This document shows, in pieces, positions 9,634 to 29,043 of a DNA stretch of 32,000 bases. The notes beneath the pieces were generated by a model that saw only the letters and a list, made by a program, of their open reading frames with translations, did no database searches and was not told the origin of the DNA. Position 1 is the first letter of the stretch; the number at the start of each line of letters is the position of its first letter. Source of the stretch: Geobacter metallireducens GS-15 (GTDB lineage Bacteria; Desulfobacterota; Desulfuromonadia; Geobacterales; Geobacteraceae); assembly GCF_000012925.1 (NCBI RefSeq), contig NC_007517.1, forward strand, positions 810,001 to 842,000. The letters are read 5' to 3'. Both the position numbers and the translations under genes were made by a program.

Positions 9634-10650
9634 ATGACCCGACTCGTTACCCCCGACATAACCGAAGACGACCTGATCGAATCGTCCCTGCGCCCCCGGG
9701 CACTGGACGACTACATCGGCCAGGAGAAGGCCAAGGGAAACCTGCGGGTCTTCATCGATGCGGCGCGGAAGCGGGGCGAGGCCCTGGACCACGTCCTCCT
9801 CTATGGCCCGCCGGGGCTGGGAAAGACGACGCTGGCCAACATCATCGCCTGCGAAATGGGAGTGAACATCAAGTCCACCTCCGGCCCGGTCATTGAGCGC
9901 CCCGGCGACCTGGCGGCGATCCTCACCAACCTGGAGCCCCACGACGTCCTTTTCATCGATGAGATTCACCGTCTCTCCCATGTGGTGGAGGAGATCCTCT
10001 ATCCGGCCATGGAGGACTACCAGCTCGACATCATTATCGGCCAGGGACCCAGCGCCCGGACCATCAAGCTGGACCTTCCGAAGTTCACCCTCGTGGGGGC
10101 CACCACGAGGGCCGGCCTCCTCTCCTCGCCGCTTCGGGATCGGTTCGGGGTCATCTCCCGGCTGGAGTTCTACACCGATGATGAGCTTACCACCATCGTC
10201 ACCCGTTCCGCCCGTATCCTGAACATCGGCATCGAACCGGAGGGTGGCCGGGAACTGGCCCGCCGAAGCCGCGGTACCCCCCGCATCGCCAACCGTCTCC
10301 TGCGCCGGGTGCGGGACTTCGCCCAGGTCCGGGCCGATGGTGTCATCACCGCACCGGTGGTGGACGAATCCCTGAAACTGCTGGAGATCGACGAGAAGGG
10401 GTTCGACCATATGGACCGGACCATTATGCTCACCATCATCGACAAGTTCGGCGGCGGTCCCGTGGGGCTCGACACCATCGCTGCCGCCATCGGCGAGGAG
10501 CGGGACACCATCGAGGACGTCTACGAACCGTTCCTCATCCAGCACGGCTTCATCAACCGCACCCCCCGCGGACGGGTGGCGACCAGGGCGGCCTACGAGC
10601 ACTTCGGCCGCATCGCTCCGCCGTCATCGTCCCAGGGGAATCTTTTCTAA
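9634..10650 (+). CDS. ruvB: Holliday junction branch-migration ATPase RuvB
   Basis: 338 aa. [16 protein letters not shown], Walker [12 protein letters not shown], Walker [26 protein letters not shown]. Confidence 0.95.
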
Positions 10651-11668: not shown

Positions 11669-12376
11669 ATGAAAAGGATACTATTTGCGCTTGCGCTGGT
11701 TGCATCAGTGGCAACATCTGGCTGGGCTATTACGTATACTGGTTCACTAGCCAGCAGTCCTGGTGGTGGATTGCTTGCAACTCTGGACTGGGCAGGGATA
11801 ACCACTGCCGGTGCTCCTAATTCTTCCCTGAGTTGGACTGTTGACGATACGACCAATACCGGTCTCTGGACCTACAACTACATCTGGACCGGAACGCGTA
11901 AGGGATTGAGCCACATCGTCATTGAAGTGTCGGATACTTTTACTAAAGACAACATTATGCAAATTTCCAGCGGGTATGATGGGGATGCCCCTAAAACCTA
12001 TTCTCCTTCTGATGCATCCAATGATGGCCTTCCCGCTGACATTTGGGGCATAAAGTGGAATGCTGAGGGAACTGTCTTCAATTTCAGTATCGTTACCGAT
12101 CGTGAGCCCATGTGGGGCGATGTATATGCCCGTGATGGAAAGACTGGCGGATCAGATGTCTATGCGTACAATACCGGCTTCGGCTTCGATACTGCTGCTG
12201 TCATTGCCGATGGCAACGCGTTCGATCAAGCGACCGGTCGCGCATGGGCACTGGTTCCCGATACGGAGAATGGCGGCGGCGGGCAGCAGGAGGTCGTTCC
12301 CGAACCGGGCACGATTATGCTCCTCGGCACCGGTCTGATCGGCCTTGCGCTTTATGGCAGGAGACGGATGAAGTAA
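11669..12376 (+). CDS. PEP-CTERM sorting-domain protein (predicted exosortase substrate)
   Basis: 235 aa. Signal peptide MKRILFALALVASVATSGWA. C-terminus VPEPGTIMLLGTGLIGLALYGRRRMK (PEP motif + TM helix + Arg cluster). GGAGG SD 5 nt upstream. GC is visibly lower than in the flanks. Confidence 0.9.
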   Translation: MKRILFALALVASVATSGWAITYTGSLASSPGGGLLATLDWAGITTAGAPNSSLSWTVDDTTNTGLWTYNYIWTGTRKGLSHIVIEVSDTFTKDNIMQISSGYDGDAPKTYSPSDASNDGLPADIWGIKWNAEGTVFNFSIVTDREPMWGDVYARDGKTGGSDVYAYNTGFGFDTAAVIADGNAFDQATGRAWALVPDTENGGGGQQEVVPEPGTIMLLGTGLIGLALYGRRRMK

Positions 12377-12435: not shown

Positions 12436-12458
12436 CGTGCGCCTGGGGATGAAATGAG

Positions 12459-12493
12459 AAAGGGGACAGTCAATTGGCTGTCCCCTTTGTTCT
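12459..12493. terminator. Stem-loop between convergent genes, probable terminator of S8 peptidase A (minus strand)
   Basis: AAAGGGGACAG (12459..12469) pairs with CTGTCCCCTTT (12478..12488). On the minus strand it is followed by the T-rich UUCUCAUUUCAUC. Confidence 0.6.
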
Positions 12494-12513: not shown

Positions 12514-14277
12514 TTACTTGTAAACCGTTATGGAAGTGGTTGTGGTGTTGCCGGCGGCATCGAAGGCTTTGGACAGTATGGTGTGGGCACCGGTAGCGAT
12601 TTTTCGCGTATTCCAGCTGTAAGACAGGCTGGTGACGCCTGTTTTGCTGGTTGCCAGCTTGCCGTCAATGTAGAGCTCGATGCGGCTTACCCCCACATTG
12701 TCGCCGGCGGTGATGGTGATCGTTGCACTGGTCCCGACCTTTGCGCCGTTGGCCGGGGAGGTGATGGCGACGGTCGGGGCGATGGTGTCGGGAGTGTTTG
12801 AAACCTTGACCGAAACAGCGCTTGATTGCCCCATGTTTCCCGCGCCGTCGAAGGCCACGGCCTCCAGGGTGTAGGAGCCGTCCGCCGTGGTGGTGGTGTC
12901 CCACGAGAAGGCGTAGGGCGCGGTGGTTGCCGTGGCGAAGGGGGCGCCGTTGATGCGGAGCTCCACCTTGGCCACGCCGACGTTGTCAGAAGCCGCCACC
13001 GCCACCGACGCGTTTCCTTTCACGATACTGGAACTCGCGGGGGAGGTGATCGATGCGGTCGGGGCAGTTGTGTCGCCGACCGGCACTGCATTCTGGGCAG
13101 CCGTGAGGCTCTTGAGGACGTTGATCCGGCCGTAGCCGAAGTACTGATCGAAGCCGGGGGTGCCGATGTCGTCGGCATTTTTGGTGATGATGTCCACCAC
13201 CTGGGCATTGGTCAGGGTCGGGTTAACGGAGAGGATCAGCGCGCCGAGCCCCGCCGCGATGGGAGAGGAGAAGGAGGTGCCGCTCACGCTCGCATAGCCG
13301 CCGCCGTTGGCGGTGGTGAGGATGGAGACGCCGGGGGCCGCGATATCGATGGTGGAGCCGTAGTTGGAAAAGCTCGCCTTGGCGTCGTTGGCGTCGGTGG
13401 CCGCCACCGACACGGCGTTGGTGCAGGCGGCCGGATAGTAGGGGGTGCTCGTGTTGTAGTTGGCTGCCGAGGCAAAGACAATGGCTCCTTTGTTCCAGGC
13501 GTAGTTCACGGCATTCTGGAGAGTCGAGGAACTGGTGGAGCCGCCGTAGCTGAGATTGATGATGCGGACCCCATGATCGGCGGCGTAGGTGATGGCACTG
13601 GCCATGCGCGAGTAGGTAGCGTAGCCGGTGGAATCCGCGATCACCAGGGGCATGATCTGGTTCTGCCACGCCACGCCGGCAACCCCGGCGCCGTTATTAC
13701 CCATGGCCCCGGCCGAGCCTGCGACCTTTGTCCCGTGCCCGGTCACATCGTGGGTATCGGTGTTGTTGAAGACAAAGTTGAAACCGGGGAGAAGCTTGCC
13801 GGCCAGGTCCGGGTGAGATGGATCGACGCCCGAGTCCAGGATGGCGATGTCAACGGAACTGGAGCCGGTGGAGATGTCCCATCCCGCCGGAGCGGCAATC
13901 TTGGGGAGATGCCACTGGGAGGCGTAGGAGGGATCGTTGGGAACCATTGTCTGCTCAGCCAGGTAATTCTCTTCGACGAACGTTACGTGGGGATTCTTGG
14001 CCAGAGCAGCCTTGACCTTTGCCCGGGCAGCAGCAGGGACCTTGATCCTCTTTACCCGGATCGGAGCGATTTCCTCGGCTTCCCGGGCGCCGGCTCCCTT
14101 GAGGACGGTGTCGGCATTGGCCTTGTGGACGCCAGCCTTGAACTGGACAAGGAGCTCATCGGTTACGAACTTCTGGGGAGGGGGTGCGGCACCGGCCATT
14201 CCCGCTGCCAGGCAGAGGATGCCGAGGGTGCCAAGGTGAAGGGTGATCTTTCCACAAACTCGTTTCGTGCAGCGCAT
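12514..14277 (-). CDS. Secreted subtilisin-like serine peptidase (S8 family) with I9-like propeptide and two C-terminal Ig-like domains, paralog A
   Basis: 587 aa. Signal peptide ...LCLAAGMAGA/APPPQ. Catalytic triad contexts AILDSGVD, HDVTGHGTKVAG, SGTSFSSPIAAG. The C-terminus has 2 x (D-T-APT-x-I-T-SP...DNVGV..VE..I.G....WNT/WDT...G.H/Y.L...A.D.AGN). GGAGGTG SD upstream. Confidence 0.9.
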   Translation of the reverse strand: MRCTKRVCGKITLHLGTLGILCLAAGMAGAAPPPQKFVTDELLVQFKAGVHKANADTVLKGAGAREAEEIAPIRVKRIKVPAAARAKVKAALAKNPHVTFVEENYLAEQTMVPNDPSYASQWHLPKIAAPAGWDISTGSSSVDIAILDSGVDPSHPDLAGKLLPGFNFVFNNTDTHDVTGHGTKVAGSAGAMGNNGAGVAGVAWQNQIMPLVIADSTGYATYSRMASAITYAADHGVRIINLSYGGSTSSSTLQNAVNYAWNKGAIVFASAANYNTSTPYYPAACTNAVSVAATDANDAKASFSNYGSTIDIAAPGVSILTTANGGGYASVSGTSFSSPIAAGLGALILSVNPTLTNAQVVDIITKNADDIGTPGFDQYFGYGRINVLKSLTAAQNAVPVGDTTAPTASITSPASSSIVKGNASVAVAASDNVGVAKVELRINGAPFATATTAPYAFSWDTTTTADGSYTLEAVAFDGAGNMGQSSAVSVKVSNTPDTIAPTVAITSPANGAKVGTSATITITAGDNVGVSRIELYIDGKLATSKTGVTSLSYSWNTRKIATGAHTILSKAFDAAGNTTTTSITVYK

Positions 14278-14438
14278 GCGCCACCTCCATGGGTTGAGTT
14301 TGCTTCCTACCTCAGAAACAGACCCCCGTACCTATGGAAGGCGGGCGTTGCTCTTCGACAACCCGGCTATCCTGACCATGGAGTCAGGACCCGTGGCTTT
14401 GCGTCCCCCGGTTACCCGAAGTTTGCCCTTTCGGAAAC
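13057..14438. repeat. Direct repeat copy 1 (about 1.38 kb, near-identical to 15912..17293)
   Basis: By-eye alignment at a constant offset of 2855 nt. Identity begins at the codons for ...VPVGDTTAPT and runs through the catalytic domain, the start codon and 161 nt of leader. It ends abruptly at 14438/17293. Confidence 0.9.
14353..14438 (-). promoter_or_regulatory. GEMM-I (c-di-GMP / 3'3'-cGAMP class) riboswitch aptamer, copy 1, in the leader of S8 peptidase A
   Basis: Minus-strand RNA: GUUUCCGAAAGGGCAAAC-UUCGG-GUAA-CCGGG-GGACGCAAAGCC-ACGGGU-CCUGAC-UCCAUG-GUCAGG-AUAGCCGGGUUGUCGAAG. It contains the conserved GGCAAAC and GACGCAAAGCC blocks, a GNRA-capped P2, a P3 hairpin and the AGCCGGGUU block in canonical order. 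Confidence 0.75.
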
Positions 14439-14497
14439 TTTCTTCTTTATCTGTTACTACATTTCGGCGTCAGGATGGATAACTTGAGGGGAAAAAA

Positions 14498-14513
14498 TGT
14501 GACTTGAATCACA
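14498..14513. promoter_or_regulatory. CRP/FNR-superfamily-type palindrome TGTGA-N6-TCACA upstream of S8 peptidase A leader
   Basis: TGTGACTTGAATCACA is a perfect match to the CRP core half-sites. It lies about 67 nt upstream of the aptamer 5' end and overlaps the stop codon of the Crp/Fnr-family gene. Confidence 0.5.
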
Positions 14514-15225
14514 AAAACGGGGGATTGAGAAAGAGGGTAGGTTTGAGGAGCATTCTTCTGCTGGCGAGGAGTTCGATCTCTCCAGCACGGGAGAAGCGGC
14601 CCAAAATGCGGCTTGCCGTCTCCCGGGATACCGATGCGTAACCGGCGACGGTGCGGTGGGTTAGCTTGATGCTGAGAATTTTGCCACGAGAATCGTCCAC
14701 GCCATACTGGGTTCCGAGATATTTGAGGACTCCCCTGACCTTCTGCTCGGCGGAGGAAAAGCGTGACAGCTTCATGAGGAACCATGATTCGCGCAGCCGC
14801 GAACAAAGCACGCTGATGATCTGCCGCAGCATCCGGTCGTTGGTGAGAATCTGGTTTTCAAAGGCTGTCCGGGCAATGAGGCCGACGGTGGCGTCTTCGT
14901 GGGCGATGAGCGTTGCCGGAGACGTGCGGCCGTCAAGGAGGGCCATTTCGCCGAAAAACGCCCCCTTGCGATGAATGGCAAGGACCTGTTCCGTGCCGTC
15001 GTTGCTGTGCTGGACTACCCGCACTTTTCCCGCAAGGACGAGGTACATGTAGTTGGCTGTATCGGCTTCATGAAGGATGGTGCGATTTTTCGGAAAGACC
15101 TGGATCTCAATGAGCTTGCTTAACGTATTGATGTCATCGGGTGGGAGGGGGGCAAAGAGCGGAATGGCGCTCAGAATCGATTGGAGAGGGGCCGGTATGG
15201 TTGTACGTGGATTCTTGGAGTTCAT
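14509..15225 (-). CDS. Crp/Fnr-family transcriptional regulator (cNMP-binding domain + C-terminal HTH)
   Basis: cNMP-binding signature GAFFGEMALLDGRTSPATLIAHEDATV. HTH: THRTVAGYASVSRETASRILGRFSRAGEI. Start placed at ATG 15225 because a strong sigma-70-type promoter lies inside the longer GTG-initiated ORF (15288). Confidence 0.85.
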   Translation of the reverse strand: MNSKNPRTTIPAPLQSILSAIPLFAPLPPDDINTLSKLIEIQVFPKNRTILHEADTANYMYLVLAGKVRVVQHSNDGTEQVLAIHRKGAFFGEMALLDGRTSPATLIAHEDATVGLIARTAFENQILTNDRMLRQIISVLCSRLRESWFLMKLSRFSSAEQKVRGVLKYLGTQYGVDDSRGKILSIKLTHRTVAGYASVSRETASRILGRFSRAGEIELLASRRMLLKPTLFLNPPFL

Positions 15226-15249
15226 GGTGAGATACCTGTCGGTTGCCGG

Positions 15250-15277
15250 ATTATAATGCAAGTATAGCAGCCTTGAA
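15250..15277 (-). promoter_or_regulatory. Sigma-70-type promoter of the Crp/Fnr-family gene
   Basis: On the minus strand: TTCAAG (15277..15272), 16-nt spacer, TATAAT (15255..15250). About 25 nt upstream of ATG 15225. Confidence 0.55.
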
Positions 15278-15304
15278 GATGAATACACGTAACAGGGTAA
15301 CAGA

Positions 15305-15346
15305 CAAAAAAAGAGGGGAGGGGCTGACTCTGCCCTCTCCCCTTTT
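15305..15346 (-). terminator. Intrinsic terminator of S8 peptidase B
   Basis: On the minus strand, an imperfect GC-rich hairpin (GGGGAGAGGGC-AGAGUCA-GCCCCUCCCCUC) is followed by U8 (plus-strand A-run 15306..15313). About 22 nt after the stop at 15369. Confidence 0.7.
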
Positions 15347-15368
15347 CGTTAACCCGCAATGGAGTTGA

Positions 15369-17132
15369 TTACTTGTAGACGGTAATGGTGGTCGTACCGA
15401 CGTTTCCGAACCAGTCGAAGGCCTTGGCGAGAATTGTGTGAGTGCCCGTGGCTACCTTGCGGGTGTTCCATGCATAGGTGAGGGTGTTGGTGCCGCTTGC
15501 CGTGGTGAGGAGGAGTCCGTCAAAGTAAAGTTCAATCTTTCTGACCGCCAGATTGTCTTTTGCTGAAATGCTGACCGTCGTTTTTGTGCCGAGCGTGATG
15601 CCCGTTGCCGGCGCTGTGATGGAGACCGTGGGCGCAATGGTGTCCAGTGAGTTGTACACGACGATTCCCGCTAGGCTCAATTCTCCCACGTTCCCGGCGG
15701 CGTCATAGGCTTTGACCGCGATAGTGTAGATGCTGTCGGGCAGGGTGGTTGTGTCCCATGAGAAGCTGAAGGGGGATGTGTTACTGGAGGCGTACAGTGC
15801 GCCGTTTATGTAAAGCTCTATCCGGGTGACACCGATGTTGTCGGCTGCCGCAACGTTGACTGTTACCGTTCCCTTGACCGTCGAGCCGGCGTTGAGCGAT
15901 GGGATTGAGACTGTCGGGGCAGTTGTGTCGCCGACCGGCACCGCATTCTGGGCAGCCGTGAGGCTCTTGAGGACGTTGATCCGGCCGTAGCCGAAGTACT
16001 GATCGAAGCCGGGGGTGCCGATGTCGTCGGCATTTTTGGTGATGATGTCCACCACCTGGGCATTGGTCAGGGTCGGGTTAACGGAGAGGATCAGCGCGCC
16101 GAGCCCCGCTGCGATGGGAGAGGAGAAGGAGGTGCCGCTCACGCTCGCATAGCCGCCGCCGTTGGCGGTGGTGAGGATGGAGACGCCAGGGGCGGTGATA
16201 TCGATGGTGGAACCGTAGTTGGAGAAGCTCGCCTTGGCGTCGTTGGCGTCGGTGGCCGCCACCGACACGGCGTTGGTGCAGGCGGCCGGATAGTAGGGGG
16301 TGCTCGTGTTGTAGTTGGCTGCCGAGGCAAAGACAATGGCCCCTTTGTTCCAGGCGTAGTTCACGGCATTCTGGAGAGTCGAGGAACTGGTGGAGCCGCC
16401 GTAGCTGAGATTGATGATGCGGACCCCATGATCGGCGGCGTAGGTGATGGCACTGGCCATGCGCGAGTAGGTAGCGTAGCCGGTGGAATCCGCGATCACC
16501 AGGGGCATGATCTGGTTCTGCCACGCCACGCCGGCAACCCCGGCGCCGTTATTACCCATGGCCCCGGCCGAGCCTGCGACCTTTGTCCCGTGCCCGGTCA
16601 CATCGTGGGTATCGGTGTTGTTGAAGACAAAGTTGAAACCGGGGAGAAGCTTGCCGGCCAGGTCCGGGTGAGATGGATCGACGCCCGAGTCCAGGATGGC
16701 GATGTCAACGGAACTGGAGCCGGTGGAGATGTCCCATCCCGCCGGAGCGGCAATCTTGGGGAGATGCCACTGGGAGGCGTAGGAGGGATCGTTGGGAACC
16801 ATTGTCTGCTCAGCCAGGTAATTCTCTTCGACGAACGTTACGTGGGGATTCTTGGCCAGAGCAGCCTTGACCTTTGCCCGGGCAGCAGCAGGGACCTTGA
16901 TCCTCTTTACCCGGATCGGAGCGATTTCCTCGGCTTCCTGGGCGCCGGCTCCCTTGAGGACGGTGTCTGAATTGTCCTTGTGGACGCCAGCCTTGAACTG
17001 GACGAGGAGCTCATCGGTTACGAACTTCTGGGGAGGGGGGGCGGCACCGGCCATTCCCGCTGCCAGGCAGAGGATACCGAGGGTGCCAAGGTGAAGGGTG
17101 ATCTTCCCACAAACTCGTTTCGTGCAGCGCAT
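15369..17132 (-). CDS. Secreted subtilisin-like serine peptidase (S8 family) with two C-terminal Ig-like domains, paralog B
   Basis: 587 aa, the same length as paralog A. Only 4 aa differences over the first ~405 residues (signal, propeptide, catalytic domain), but roughly half identity over the last ~180 residues (Ig-like domains). Confidence 0.9.
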   Translation of the reverse strand: MRCTKRVCGKITLHLGTLGILCLAAGMAGAAPPPQKFVTDELLVQFKAGVHKDNSDTVLKGAGAQEAEEIAPIRVKRIKVPAAARAKVKAALAKNPHVTFVEENYLAEQTMVPNDPSYASQWHLPKIAAPAGWDISTGSSSVDIAILDSGVDPSHPDLAGKLLPGFNFVFNNTDTHDVTGHGTKVAGSAGAMGNNGAGVAGVAWQNQIMPLVIADSTGYATYSRMASAITYAADHGVRIINLSYGGSTSSSTLQNAVNYAWNKGAIVFASAANYNTSTPYYPAACTNAVSVAATDANDAKASFSNYGSTIDITAPGVSILTTANGGGYASVSGTSFSSPIAAGLGALILSVNPTLTNAQVVDIITKNADDIGTPGFDQYFGYGRINVLKSLTAAQNAVPVGDTTAPTVSIPSLNAGSTVKGTVTVNVAAADNIGVTRIELYINGALYASSNTSPFSFSWDTTTLPDSIYTIAVKAYDAAGNVGELSLAGIVVYNSLDTIAPTVSITAPATGITLGTKTTVSISAKDNLAVRKIELYFDGLLLTTASGTNTLTYAWNTRKVATGTHTILAKAFDWFGNVGTTTITVYK

Positions 17133-17293
17133 GCGCCACCTCCATGGGTTGAGTTTGCTTCCTACCTCAGAAACAGACCCCCGTACCTATGGAAGGCGGG
17201 CGTTGCTCTTCGACAACCCGGCTATCCTGACCATGGAGTCAGGACCCGTGGCTTTGCGTCCTCCGGTTACCCGAAGTTTGCCCTCTCGGAAAC
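15912..17293. repeat. Direct repeat copy 2 (near-identical to 13057..14438)
   Basis: See copy 1. I counted about 8 mismatches in the ~300 nt next to the 3' junction and very few elsewhere. Confidence 0.9.
17208..17293 (-). promoter_or_regulatory. GEMM-I riboswitch aptamer, copy 2, in the leader of S8 peptidase B
   Basis: Same sequence as copy 1 (offset +2855) except for 2 substitutions (17262, 17285). One converts a predicted U.G pair of P2 into U-A, which is consistent with the proposed helix. Confidence 0.75.
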
Positions 17294-17350
17294 ATGTTTG
17301 TTATAAAACAGAGCAAAAAATACCAGATAATAGTGTGTTAATCAAGGAGT

Positions 17351-17366
17351 CGTGACGGTTGTCACA
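17351..17366. promoter_or_regulatory. CRP-type palindrome CGTGA-N6-TCACA upstream of S8 peptidase B leader
   Basis: CGTGACGGTTGTCACA lies about 65 nt upstream of the aptamer 5' end, at almost the same distance as box 1, although the surrounding sequence is outside the duplicated segment. Confidence 0.45.
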
Positions 17367-17506: not shown

Positions 17507-18049
17507 ATGAAAATCCTCCTCCATATGTGCTGCGGGCCGTGCGCCGCCTATCCGGTTGAGCAACTCCGGGGCCAAGGCGCGGCGGTGACCGGCTACTGGT
17601 TCAACCACAATATCCACCCCTATCAGGAGTACATGCGTCGTCGCGACACGGTGCGGGCGTATGCGGAAAAGGTGAGGCTCGATGTGATCTGGCGCGACGA
17701 GTACCGGCTGGAGGAGTTCCTGGCCGCGGTGGCCCAGAACCCGGACGATCGCTGCTTTTACTGCTACTTCTCTCGTCTTGATGCTGTCGCGGCCGCAGCA
17801 GCGGCAGGAGGATTCGACGCGTTCAGTTCCACGCTCCTCTACAGCCGCTACCAGAAGCATGACGCGATCCGCGACTGCGCCGAGCGGGCGGCAGAGCGTC
17901 ACGGCGTGGCCTTCCATTACGACGACTACCGGCGGGGATGGCAGGAGGGGATCCGCCTCTCCAAGGAGCTGGGGCTCTACCGCCAGCAGTACTGCGGCTG
18001 CATTTACAGCGAGAAGGAACGGTATCATCCGCGGGAAGGGGCGAAGTGA
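17507..18049 (+). CDS. queH: Epoxyqueuosine reductase QueH (DUF208 family)
   Basis: 180 aa. MKILLHMCCGPCAAYP (HxCCxPC) and YRQQYCGCIYSEKERY are hallmark DUF208/QueH motifs. Confidence 0.85.
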   Translation: MKILLHMCCGPCAAYPVEQLRGQGAAVTGYWFNHNIHPYQEYMRRRDTVRAYAEKVRLDVIWRDEYRLEEFLAAVAQNPDDRCFYCYFSRLDAVAAAAAAGGFDAFSSTLLYSRYQKHDAIRDCAERAAERHGVAFHYDDYRRGWQEGIRLSKELGLYRQQYCGCIYSEKERYHPREGAK

Positions 18050-26232: not shown

Positions 26233-29043
26233 CTACAGCTTCACGGTCTTGTATAAAAAGTTCTTGAATTTAAAGAATTTTTTCCGCTCATCGTCGTTTT
26301 CCTCGTCGTCGCCGTTCACCGCTTTCAGATAACGGGCCACCTGGGGCATGGCCTTGCCCGCCGCATCCTTTGCCCGCTCGATAACGAGCCGCACCACATC
26401 CCGGGAGATGGCGTTGGCGGAGTAGGGCTCGTAGACCGCTTCCCAGAAGGTCGCGCCGTTGGCGATCTGCTGCATGATGTCAACTGACAGCCGTTCGTTG
26501 AGCTCCTGGGCGGCGTTGGCAGGGGGGAGTTCCCGCATGCCGGCGGCTAGGGCACGGCGGATGTCGTCGGCGGTAAGGACTTTCCCTTTCCGGAAGAAGA
26601 GCGCCCGCAGCAGGATGCTCCGTAGCTCCCGGATGTTGCCGTGGTAGTGGTGGTTCATCAGGAGCTGCTTGGCGTCGCGGGTGAGGGTGGGGGTGTCCTC
26701 CTTGGGCTCGTCGCCGCGATAGGTGCGGTAGAGCTTGCCGAGGAAGTGGGTGGCCAGGTCGGGGATATCCTCACGCCGGTCATTCAGGGACGGCACCCGC
26801 ATCGACAGCTCCGAGAGGCGGTGGTAGAGGTCTTCCCGGAAGTTTCCCCGCCGGATCTCCTCGGTCAGGTCCTTGTTGGTGGCGGCCACCAGCAGCACCC
26901 GGCTGAACCGGTCCTGGTTGTCCCCCAGGCGCACGAAGCCGCCGTTGTCGAGAAAGCGCAGGAGCTGCACCTGGGTCTTGGGGTCGGCGTCGCCGATCTC
27001 ATCCAGGAAGACGATTCCCCCCGCCGCTTCTTCCAGAATCCCCTTCCGGTCGCTGTAGGCGCCGGTGAAGGCCCCCTTCTTGTGGCCGAAGAGCTCCGAG
27101 TAGGTGAGGTCCCCGCTGTAGGCGGCGATGTTGGTCTTTTTCACCGGGAGCTGGCCGCTGGGGTTCAGTTTCTCCCGGTACATCTCGTTCAGCTTGTTGT
27201 AGAGGTTGTTGAAAAAGAATTCCTTGCCGGCGCCGGTCTGCCCCAGGACCAGGATGGAGGGGAGGCCGATGGTGGCTTCCTGGAGCACGTTCTTGGACCA
27301 GAGGGTGATCCGGTTGAAGAGGGGAACCGACACGGTCTCGATGAAGTCGACGATCTCCTGGGCCTTGCGGCTGTTGCCGATGATGTTGCCGAGGCGGTAG
27401 GAGGAGATCTGGGGGTCTTTGTAGGCCACGTCGCTTTTAAGTCGCGTCACCTCGTTCTGGAGCCGCTCGATCCGCGTCAGGTCCGAGATGTGCCGGGCCG
27501 TGAGCCGGTCGATGATCTGGAGGATCCGCTTGTGCTCCTCGGTGAACCAGGCCGGCTTCAGGGAGTTGAGGCAGACCACGGCGATCACCTCGTCGTCGCA
27601 GACGATGGGGACGGCGATCTCGCTCTGGATCTGCTCGTGCATGGAGCGGTGGAACCCCTCGCCCTGCTGTTCGTCGGCCACGTGGGCGATGATCCTGGGC
27701 TGCTTCGACCAGGCCACGTACCCCGTGAGGCTCCGTTCCTCCGGGGGGAGCTCCCCCCCGCCGATCCGGAAGGGGGGGATGTGCTTCTTCATCCACGCCT
27801 TGTTCTTGGCGCCGACGATGGTCCCTTCCTCGTCCTCCACCAGGAGCCACTTACCCCCTTCCCGCTCCTCCACGATGGCGATGCTCCCGGTGTCGGCGCC
27901 GATGAGCTCTGTCGCCTTGGAGAGGACCTTGGTGAGGAAGGGCTGCAGCTCTTCGGTCCGTTCCTGGAGGAGTTCGGTGATTTCGGCCAGGACCCGGATC
28001 TCCAGGTGCTCGCCGCCGATCTCGTTCACGGCCCGCTCGGCCATCTCGGCGTGGGTTTGGAGAAGCCCCATCTCGAAGTCGGAGAAACGGTAGAGCTCAA
28101 CGGTGAAGTAGTTCACGAGGCAGATGACCTTGCGGCTGGACGGCTCGTAGCGGGGGACCACGTAGAGGGAACGGAGCGCCATCTCTTCGGTGAGGGCCTT
28201 CTTCTGGAGGGAGTGCTGGGTGAGGTCGGGGATGAAGAGGGGGCGCAGGAGCCGTTCGTCAGTAATGACGGCGTTGTCGTCGATGAAGCGGGAGATGAGG
28301 GAGGTGCCCCGCTGCAGCGCGATCTCTCCCTGTTCGTCGTAACGGGACTTGAACCGGGGGTCTTCCGAATGGCTGGCAAGGATGGCGAGTCGCGCCGTGC
28401 CGTCGTCGCCCATGACCGGCACGAGCACCGAGGCGAGCACCAGCTTGTCGATGAGGCGCACCGCCGACTGGACCATGAAGGAGGCGGCCTCCCGTTTTTT
28501 GTACTCGTCAACCCGCCGGGCCAGCAGGAGCTGCTGGTGGTAGATGCGGGCGGAGTCGATCCGGTCGGCCACGGAGGTGATGAACTCGCCCAGGAGGGCC
28601 TTATCCTTCCCCCTGAGGAGATCCGCCGGCTGGAAGCGGTCGATGCAGGCCACGCCGATGGACTTCCCCTGGCTCACCACCGGCAGGAGCGAGGAGATGC
28701 CGACGGCGAACCGCTCGGCAAAGCCGTTGTCGAAGGTGCTCGGGCCGGCCGGGTCATGCCGGAACTCAGCCGGGTACTGGCTGACGAACACGCTGGAGAC
28801 CGTGGCCTCCCGGGAAATGATGGGGAAGCTTACCGCACGGATCTCGTCTGCCAGAGGGCCCGAGGCGTAGACGCAGGAGAGGACTCCGCGGGTCAGGTCC
28901 TCCAGGTAGATGCGGATACGGTCCTGGCCCGAGACGAGGCGGATTCCCTCGGCAACGGCATGGAGCATCTCCTCCAGGTTTTCCTTGCCATAGTCGGCGA
29001 TGCGGTCGCGGAGTGCATTGAGCTGGGTGCTGAGATTGGTCAT
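26233..29043 (-). CDS. Sigma-54-dependent transcriptional activator (bEBP) with three N-terminal GAF-like domains
   Basis: 936 aa. Walker A LGQTGAGKEFF, the sigma-54 contact loop GAFTGA (GHKKGAFTGAYSDRKG), Walker B GGIVFLDEIGD, ELFGH. A long N-terminal region with repeated GAF-like units. The C-terminal ~100 aa is not a textbook Fis-type HTH by eye. Confidence 0.85.
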   Translation of the reverse strand: MTNLSTQLNALRDRIADYGKENLEEMLHAVAEGIRLVSGQDRIRIYLEDLTRGVLSCVYASGPLADEIRAVSFPIISREATVSSVFVSQYPAEFRHDPAGPSTFDNGFAERFAVGISSLLPVVSQGKSIGVACIDRFQPADLLRGKDKALLGEFITSVADRIDSARIYHQQLLLARRVDEYKKREAASFMVQSAVRLIDKLVLASVLVPVMGDDGTARLAILASHSEDPRFKSRYDEQGEIALQRGTSLISRFIDDNAVITDERLLRPLFIPDLTQHSLQKKALTEEMALRSLYVVPRYEPSSRKVICLVNYFTVELYRFSDFEMGLLQTHAEMAERAVNEIGGEHLEIRVLAEITELLQERTEELQPFLTKVLSKATELIGADTGSIAIVEEREGGKWLLVEDEEGTIVGAKNKAWMKKHIPPFRIGGGELPPEERSLTGYVAWSKQPRIIAHVADEQQGEGFHRSMHEQIQSEIAVPIVCDDEVIAVVCLNSLKPAWFTEEHKRILQIIDRLTARHISDLTRIERLQNEVTRLKSDVAYKDPQISSYRLGNIIGNSRKAQEIVDFIETVSVPLFNRITLWSKNVLQEATIGLPSILVLGQTGAGKEFFFNNLYNKLNEMYREKLNPSGQLPVKKTNIAAYSGDLTYSELFGHKKGAFTGAYSDRKGILEEAAGGIVFLDEIGDADPKTQVQLLRFLDNGGFVRLGDNQDRFSRVLLVAATNKDLTEEIRRGNFREDLYHRLSELSMRVPSLNDRREDIPDLATHFLGKLYRTYRGDEPKEDTPTLTRDAKQLLMNHHYHGNIRELRSILLRALFFRKGKVLTADDIRRALAAGMRELPPANAAQELNERLSVDIMQQIANGATFWEAVYEPYSANAISRDVVRLVIERAKDAAGKAMPQVARYLKAVNGDDEENDDERKKFFKFKNFLYKTVKL

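Follow-up and report, generated by a model that had tools for sequence, protein, structure and literature searches.

Evidence for recurrent, domain-limited gene conversion between two riboswitch-associated subtilase genes in Geobacter metallireducens GS-15

The stretch of DNA analyzed here, referred to below as the window, comprises 32,000 nt of the Geobacter metallireducens GS-15 genome (contig NC_007517.1, positions 810,001 to 842,000). It contains two genes, S8_A and S8_B, that encode closely similar subtilases (S8 proteases) with C-terminal immunoglobulin-like (Ig-like) domains of the Big_7 family, each gene being preceded by a predicted riboswitch of the c-di-GMP-I clan. Comparison with the corresponding loci of other Geobacter makes it very probable that the pair arose by an old duplication and that its leaders and catalytic halves have since been homogenized by recurrent gene conversion within each genome. 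The pair adds a clear, if ordinary, case to a process already known, concerted evolution. The segments concerned are:

12514..14277, minus strand: S8_A gene, 587 aa, downstream of crp (open reading frame (ORF) and Pfam search)
15369..17132, minus strand: S8_B gene, 587 aa, the extra copy, between queH and crp (ORF and Pfam search)
13058..14438, minus strand: homogenized segment of copy A, comprising the aptamer, the expression platform, and codons 1-407; 98.7% identical to copy B
15913..17293, minus strand: homogenized segment of copy B (identity profile, quartet sites)
12514..13057, minus strand: A-type tail, two Big_7 domains and the stop codon; has escaped conversion
15369..15912, minus strand: B-type tail, two Big_7 domains and the stop codon; 55% identical to the A tail in amino acids

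Concerted evolution of the leader and catalytic half

Both the ORF list and a repeat search place the two genes at a constant offset of 2855 nt, in agreement with an initial description made from the letters alone (the sequence-only reading), which had also noted a near-identical leader and catalytic segment and tails of equal length that are only about half identical. In the ungapped alignment, the core (13058..14438) has 18 mismatches in 1381 nt and the tail (12514..13057) has 212 in 544 nt, that is, 98.7% and 61% identity, respectively; beyond position 14439 the identity at the fixed offset is about 25%, the random level. Four amino acid differences (A53D, A55S, R65Q, and A313T) fall in residues 1-407 and 81 in the last 180, and there are no indels along the two proteins. 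A two-rate maximum-likelihood model places the change point at position 13058 (log-likelihood (lnL) gain 245, 2-lnL support 13058-13062), after codon 407 and at the DTTAPT motif that opens the first Big_7 domain. The step spans a few nucleotides and is not gradual, as the sequence-only reading had anticipated. Codons 1-407 of the homogenized segment cover the signal peptide, the propeptide, and the catalytic domain and run just into the first Big_7 domain.

Three complete two-copy loci were available for comparison: that of the window genome, that of the nearest named genome, G. hydrogenophilus DSM 13691 (locus L001, a short-read assembly; S8 protein 91% identical, flanking genes 93-94% identical in nucleotides), and that of a Geobacter metagenome-assembled genome (MAG; locus L002). 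A genome scan showed that L001 and L002 share the gene order queH, riboswitch-S8_B, crp, riboswitch-S8_A. Over the stretch that begins with the riboswitch and ends with the catalytic domain, the identity of the paralogs is 99-100% in each of the three genomes, whereas that of the orthologs is 83-95% when the window genome is compared with G. hydrogenophilus and 72-90% when it is compared with L002. In neighbor-joining trees, the catalytic domain groups by genome (99-100% bootstrap) and the second Ig-like domain (Ig2) groups by copy type.

The sites that are informative in the quartet formed by the two copies of the window genome and the two copies of G. hydrogenophilus divide along the same lines. 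From the expression platform to the junction (14329 to 13063), 96 sites are of the concerted type and none is of the orthology type. The ratio is the opposite in the promoter (2 concerted versus 18 orthology), the aptamer (0 versus 2), the linker with Ig2 (4 versus 31), and the 3' flank (1 versus 25). Synonymous divergence (dS; this and the ratio omega are pairwise Nei-Gojobori estimates) between the window paralogs is 0.03 in the catalytic domain and 0.06 in the signal peptide and propeptide, rising to 1.31 in the first Ig-like domain (Ig1) and 1.88 in Ig2, and the core dS between species is 0.22-0.42 for the window genome versus G. hydrogenophilus and 0.62-0.92 for the window genome versus L002. 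Since synonymous sites are homogenized, purifying selection alone cannot explain the identity of the core. A simple old or a simple recent duplication, neither of which the sequence-only reading thought sufficient, is ruled out because the core dS is 0.03-0.06 between the window paralogs but 0.22-0.42 between the window genome and G. hydrogenophilus, and because the core clusters by genome. Gene conversion, one of the processes proposed there, accounts for a core that follows the genome and for promoters, Ig2, and 3' flanks that follow the ortholog in all three genomes.

The 3' edge of near-perfect identity lies at window-equivalent positions 13057 in the window, 13135 in G. hydrogenophilus, and 13132 in L002, that is, within about 80 nt. 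Inside the window core the mismatches are clustered: seven lie in 13255-13486, eight in the 168 nt of 14084-14251, and none in the 597 nt between (P = 7e-4 under a uniform spread of mismatches), so that the flanking patches have 3-5% mismatch; derived states are present in both S8 copies. The perfect run, the mismatch patches, and the derived states in both copies together point to several tracts of different age and direction.

The arrangement of the locus in relatives bears on the age of the duplication. More distant Geobacter loci show crp followed by a single riboswitch-S8 gene (L007 and L013 with full 10-kb flanks, L009-L011 on shorter contigs), and the 3.5-kb contig L127, which stops shortly after its S8 gene, has the order queH, crp, S8; thus the position of S8_A downstream of crp is ancestral. 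Incomplete loci add to the picture of the two-copy arrangement: the metagenome scaffold L041 has the window-type order as far as the first codons of S8_A, where the contig ends, and the 1648-nt contig L042 of G. grbiciae contains only the B tail and crp and is broken in the repeat at both ends. Close Crp orthologs are found mostly on contigs of 1.1-1.6 kb, the pattern expected of a unique segment between two near-identical repeats. The gene order being common to these genomes and the unconverted parts following orthology, the duplication appears to be older than the speciations compared.

The copies were at first described as a tandem duplication. The duplicate pair is real, but crp is single and lies between its members, and no second copy or remnant of crp was found elsewhere in the window, including upstream of copy B; therefore the pair is not a head-to-tail tandem. 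Such a remnant upstream of copy B would have favored a history in which crp and S8 were duplicated together and one crp was later lost.

Two side observations concern the relatives. In L009, L010, and L013 the S8 protease has 750 aa and four Big_7-type domains (an internally duplicated tail), with a c-di-GMP-I-GGC aptamer upstream. The lengths of the contigs with close Crp orthologs may act as a proxy for the end of the exact repeat in each strain.

Divergence of the tails and competing explanations

The two tails carry the same two Big_7 domains and align without gaps, and so are homologous Ig-like repeats, as proposed at the outset, rather than unrelated domains. Between the paralogous tails omega is 0.17-0.34, and 104 of the 212 mismatches are at third codon positions. 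Similar values are obtained along each line of orthologs. For the A tails of the window genome and G. hydrogenophilus, omega is 0.21 at 86-92% amino acid identity and a dS of 0.18-0.35, and for the B tails of the window genome and L041 it is 0.18-0.21 at 82-83% identity and a dS of 0.47-0.68, the core dS being 0.38. Among 5.8 billion proteins searched, the B tail has a single close relative, the L041 protein, at 83% identity. The tails are best read as old and constrained, and not as fast-evolving.

Two other sources of tail variation were examined and set aside. Variation by a diversity-generating retroelement (DGR) or from silent cassettes was rejected: the mismatch spectrum of the tails is not adenine-specific and peaks at third codon positions, a tblastn search of the window with the tails matched only the two S8 genes and no silent tail copies, and no reverse-transcriptase domain was found among the large ORFs scanned in the window. 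A foreign origin of the B tail judged by composition was also dropped, since the difference in G+C content at third codon positions (GC3, 0.72 in the B tail versus 0.79) is too small to decide.

Several points weigh against conversion. Its basis is comparative, no recombination event having been seen directly. Assemblers can over-homogenize repeats, so that the absence of differences between the cores of L002 (like L041 and L123, a MAG or metagenome assembly) may be inflated. The recurrence of the 3' edge does not separate a mechanical limit of homology from selection. Further, Ig1 of copy B is of the A type in G. hydrogenophilus and G. grbiciae, which implies that the S8/Big_7 junction is not an absolute barrier; most probably an older tract overwrote Ig1 of copy B in their lineage, where the B tail also has a 15-aa Thr/Pro-rich insertion in the linker (L001 8300-8900; L042 1-628; L126 3-413). 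Ig2 of the window B copy is separated from that of the G. hydrogenophilus B copy by a dS of 1.9, versus 0.35 for the A copies and 0.23 for the core, and the history of the B tail thus does not appear to have been simply vertical. Nor does a crp remnant upstream of copy B mark the route by which the second cassette reached its place between queH and crp.

Gene order gives a last point of this kind. In another Geobacter, represented by three assemblies (L123-L125), crp adjoins queH; L124 and L125 confirm the queH-crp junction only, and L123 (5001-9985) is the only contig that spans the locus, in the order queH, crp, S8 (607 aa), S8 (587 aa), PEP-CTERM. Both tails of L123 are A-like, and its paralogs are 88-93% identical, with values of 97-100% confined to the 3' half of the catalytic domain; this pair looks like an independent tandem duplication with a conversion tract of its own. 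The flanks of L123 are about 96% identical to those of L041, yet the gene orders differ, and identity between the crp genes reaches only 86%. Near relatives are thus polymorphic in the structure of this locus, and with two of them differing in gene order, recombination between genomes probably shapes it as well.

These data bring forward the cassette exchange that the sequence-only reading had listed as an alternative: the B tail, or the whole crp-S8 locus, would have been imported from another Geobacter lineage, with conversion a secondary process. The slightly lower GC3 of the B tail, its single close relative among billions of proteins, the high Ig2 dS between the B copies as compared with the A tails, and the L041/L123 discrepancy all speak for import. 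Nevertheless, we consider it unlikely as the explanation of the window, since the B tails of the window genome and L041 differ roughly as the flanking genes predict, since Ig2 of the window and G. hydrogenophilus B copies has 31 orthology-type and only 4 concerted sites, and, above all, since import of a tail cannot explain homogenized synonymous sites in the core of three genomes. For the window, exchange is not needed, its B tail being shared with the metagenomic relative L041 at 82-83% amino acid identity; it may operate in some lineages in addition to conversion without replacing it.

A single recent event, in which the 1.4-kb leader and catalytic segment was duplicated or replaced once with no ongoing process, would also give a sharp step if only the window were considered. 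It is very improbable in view of the recurrence of the pattern in G. hydrogenophilus and L002, each with its own species-specific core, and of the uneven mismatch density (0/597 nt versus 8/168 nt, P = 7e-4) with derived changes in both copies.

Scarcely plausible is a recent duplication of the whole gene followed by rapid separation of the tails under diversifying selection, although Ig-like C-terminal domains of secreted proteins are plausible targets, the tails are equally long, and a few positively selected sites would be compatible with pairwise omega. The tail dS is saturated (1.31 and 1.88) next to a core dS of 0.03, third positions hold about half of the tail mismatches, and the calculation of dN/dS for each segment gives an omega of 0.17-0.34 between paralogs and about 0.2 in each ortholog line, so that the diversifying selection proposed by the sequence-only reading is not supported.

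The chance that the pair is an assembly artifact, a collapsed repeat written twice, is practically negligible: short-read assemblies do break at the repeat, but the copies have 18 core differences, including copy-specific states shared with G. hydrogenophilus, and flanks, tails, promoters, and terminators of their own.

Proteins, leaders, promoters, and neighboring genes

The remaining features of the locus are as follows.

14353..14436, minus strand: c-di-GMP-I-clan aptamer of copy A (RF03168, c-di-GMP-I-UAU; Rfam, 69.7 bits)
17208..17291, minus strand: c-di-GMP-I-clan aptamer of copy B (RF03168, c-di-GMP-I-UAU; Rfam, 69.2 bits)
14278..14352, minus strand: putative expression platform of copy A, a terminator-like hairpin with a U-rich run (14313-14345) followed by the ribosome-binding site GGAGG
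17133-17207, minus strand: putative expression platform of copy B, identical to that of copy A (sequence comparison)
14498..14513, no strand assigned: CRP/FNR-type palindrome TGTGA-N6-TCACA upstream of copy A, overlapping the crp stop codon (pattern search)
17351..17366, no strand assigned: CRP/FNR-type palindrome upstream of copy B (pattern search)
12452..12485, minus strand: intrinsic-terminator-like hairpin and T run 3' of S8_A, copy-specific (read from the sequence)
15306..15342, minus strand: intrinsic-terminator-like hairpin and T run 3' of S8_B, copy-specific (read from the sequence)
14509..15225, minus strand: crp, a single Crp/Fnr-family regulator of 238 aa between the S8 copies (Pfam cNMP_binding and HTH_Crp_2)
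11669..12376: PEP-CTERM protein gene, convergent with S8_A (domain search)
17507..18049: queH, divergent from S8_B (domain search)

Both S8 proteins have a signal peptide, and a Pfam search finds in each a Fervidolysin_NPro-like propeptide (PF22148), a Peptidase_S8 domain (PF00082, 1e-53), and two stretches matching Big_7 (PF17957). The catalytic Asp-His-Ser motifs are DSGVD at 148, HGTKVAG at 181, and GTSFSSP at 333, and the closest PDB sequences are the AK.1 protease (1DBI, E 7e-67) and thermitase (1THM, E 4e-66). With an S8 domain, all three catalytic motifs, and a propeptide, both genes are predicted to encode secreted thermitase-like subtilases. They share the D-H-S motifs, the N-terminal propeptide, and the signal peptide with thermitase and AK.1, from which they differ in having two additional C-terminal Big_7 domains. 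A subtilisin-like protease of Geobacter matures OmcZ (Kai et al. 2021, according to a passage of PMC10599522).

Both aptamers lie in the 5' leader, on the strand of the gene and 76 nt upstream of the ATG codon. The identity between the copies stops 2 nt upstream of the start of the Rfam model. The aptamers differ at two positions, 14430 (A in copy A, G in copy B) and 14407 (G in copy A, A in copy B), and the copy-specific states at both recur in the G. hydrogenophilus orthologs, the first concerted-type site being 14329. These shared states indicate that conversion since the split of the two species missed roughly the first 30 nt of this element. As the aptamer sequences of the window genome and G. 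hydrogenophilus are 99% identical, the likeness of this part in the two copies reflects conservation of the riboswitch rather than recent conversion. Thus, of the two sharp edges reported by the sequence-only reading, the one at the catalytic/Ig junction holds, and the one at the riboswitch is partly an effect of conservation.

The assignment of these aptamers to a variant class is tentative, and so is any statement about their ligand. Both are full-length matches to RF03168, at scores only about 4 bits over its gathering score of 65.9, and both carry G at model position 10 (14427 and 17282), where the consensus is U; in other Geobacter, the leaders of the S8 orthologs fit one of two variant models of this clan, UAU or GGC. 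To our knowledge, the ligand of RF03168 has not been established. Neither this ligand nor this gene pair is described in the literature searched, which did not include the paper defining the variant, and in the G. metallireducens genome paper there is no mention of GEMM or of these proteases. The GEMM-I (c-di-GMP-I clan) riboswitches of Geobacter include the cGAMP-selective GEMM-Ib class (PMC8835794, PMC6456294). Similarly to Geobacter GEMM-I riboswitches, the window elements have an aptamer of clan CL00126 in the 5' leader of a gene whose product is secreted or extracellular, followed by a terminator-like platform; in contrast to GEMM-I and GEMM-Ib, they score best with the variant RF03168 and have G for U at position 10.

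Upstream of the aptamers, at a distance of 57-59 nt, each copy has a CRP/FNR-type box, one perfect and the other with one mismatch, at a mutual offset of 2853 nt. These are the sole matches to TGTGA-N6-TCACA with at most one mismatch in the 32-kb window (0.48 expected; two or more matches in 6/100 shuffles). Most of the relatives examined keep the box, among them several that have one S8 gene; the pattern search found none upstream of S8 in L004, L007, and L011. In copy B the box is followed by a conserved -35 element TTGATT (17340-17345) and a -10 element TATTTT (17317-17322) with a spacing of 17, both recognized from the alignment only, and a promoter scan found a consensus sigma-70 site for neither copy. 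The occurrence of the box in the same register in both copies indicates that the duplicated unit probably included the promoter, extending at least about 75 nt further upstream. Being out of the reach of conversion, the two promoters have diverged since then. The arrangement suggests dual control of the proteases, by a Crp-type regulator at initiation and by the riboswitch downstream.

The longest ORF of crp reaches a GTG codon at 15288, 18 nt downstream of the terminator-like hairpin of S8_B, but the real start is probably the ATG at 15225, because the orthologs have 238 aa. When the Crp protein was used for a metagenome scan, all relatives recovered were of about 33% identity. Elsewhere the surroundings are those of an ordinary chromosomal region, with genes for a PilY1-domain protein (107-2185) and a GAF/sigma-54 activator (26233-29043), and an ORF at 9634-10650 that, by its sequence, we take to be RuvB. 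No mobile-element genes were found among the large ORFs scanned in the window.

A model of the locus and its relation to known systems

We suggest the following scenario. The ancestral state would be queH, crp, riboswitch-S8, as in the relatives that show one S8 gene. The duplicated cassette would have consisted of the promoter with its Crp box, the c-di-GMP-I-clan riboswitch, and the secreted thermitase-like S8 protease with its two Big_7 domains, and in the lineage of the window a second such cassette would have come to lie between queH and crp. Since then, homology-dependent, non-reciprocal recombination between the direct repeats on the chromosome, presumably of the RecA type, would repeatedly have replaced the sequence of one copy by that of the other, over a stretch reaching from roughly the 3' half of the aptamer to the catalytic domain, propeptide included. 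Conversion would end no more than a few nucleotides from the DTTAPT motif with which the first Big_7 domain begins, because the divergence downstream (about 39% nucleotide mismatch) is too high for extension of the heteroduplex. Tracts that overwrite a tail would probably be selected against, both tail types being under purifying selection. Such a boundary could be self-reinforcing, in that the converted part stays identical and keeps converting, and the tail keeps diverging. The outcome would be a pair of proteases alike in catalysis and in riboswitch, each with a promoter of its own and with an Ig-like C-terminal module that differs from that of the other; these modules probably determine targeting to a substrate or a surface.

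As a speculative and less likely reading, this scenario could be extended to a platform with two slots. In such a platform, conversion would keep the shared regulatory and catalytic module uniform, selection would retain different Ig-like targeting modules, recombination between lineages would occasionally swap them, and the junction would be held by selection and not just by the limit of homology. Recurrence of the edge in three genomes and overwriting of Ig1 only in the G. hydrogenophilus and G. grbiciae lineage fit this idea, as do the non-vertical divergence of the B tail and the structural difference between L041 and L123 despite flanks that are ~96% identical.

Concerted evolution by RecA-dependent gene conversion is familiar in bacteria, for instance, from tufA/tufB of Salmonella, the rRNA operons, and the bab and sab genes of Helicobacter pylori; a 2005 review by Santoyo and Romero reportedly covers gene conversion in bacterial paralogs. 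The S8 pair shares with these systems the closer similarity within a genome, homogenized synonymous sites, discrete tract edges, and independent recurrence in related species. It differs from them in that only the platform-propeptide-catalytic module is homogenized, with the Ig-like module and the promoters remaining copy-specific, that in three genomes the 3' edge falls at one and the same domain junction, and that an unduplicated regulator lies between the repeats. Like antigenic variation of the pilE/pilS type and diversity-generating retroelements, the locus combines a constant module, a variable C-terminal module, and recombination, but the logic is the opposite: here recombination homogenizes the constant part, whereas the variable parts are stable under purifying selection.

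The pair offers a well-bounded natural case of domain-limited gene conversion, in which the platform and the catalytic domain evolve in concert, and the promoters and binding modules evolve independently. Its appeal lies in a tract bounded by a protein module, in the recurrence of that boundary, and in the apparent combination of Crp-type and riboswitch control. In practical terms, trees of the catalytic domain of these proteases and orthology calls derived from it will mislead, as only the tails and flanks carry orthology, and short-read assemblies break at this locus or may collapse the copies. For Geobacter itself, the two genes constitute a natural experiment on the role of the Big_7 tail in a secreted protease that is apparently under the control of both a cyclic dinucleotide and a Crp-type regulator.

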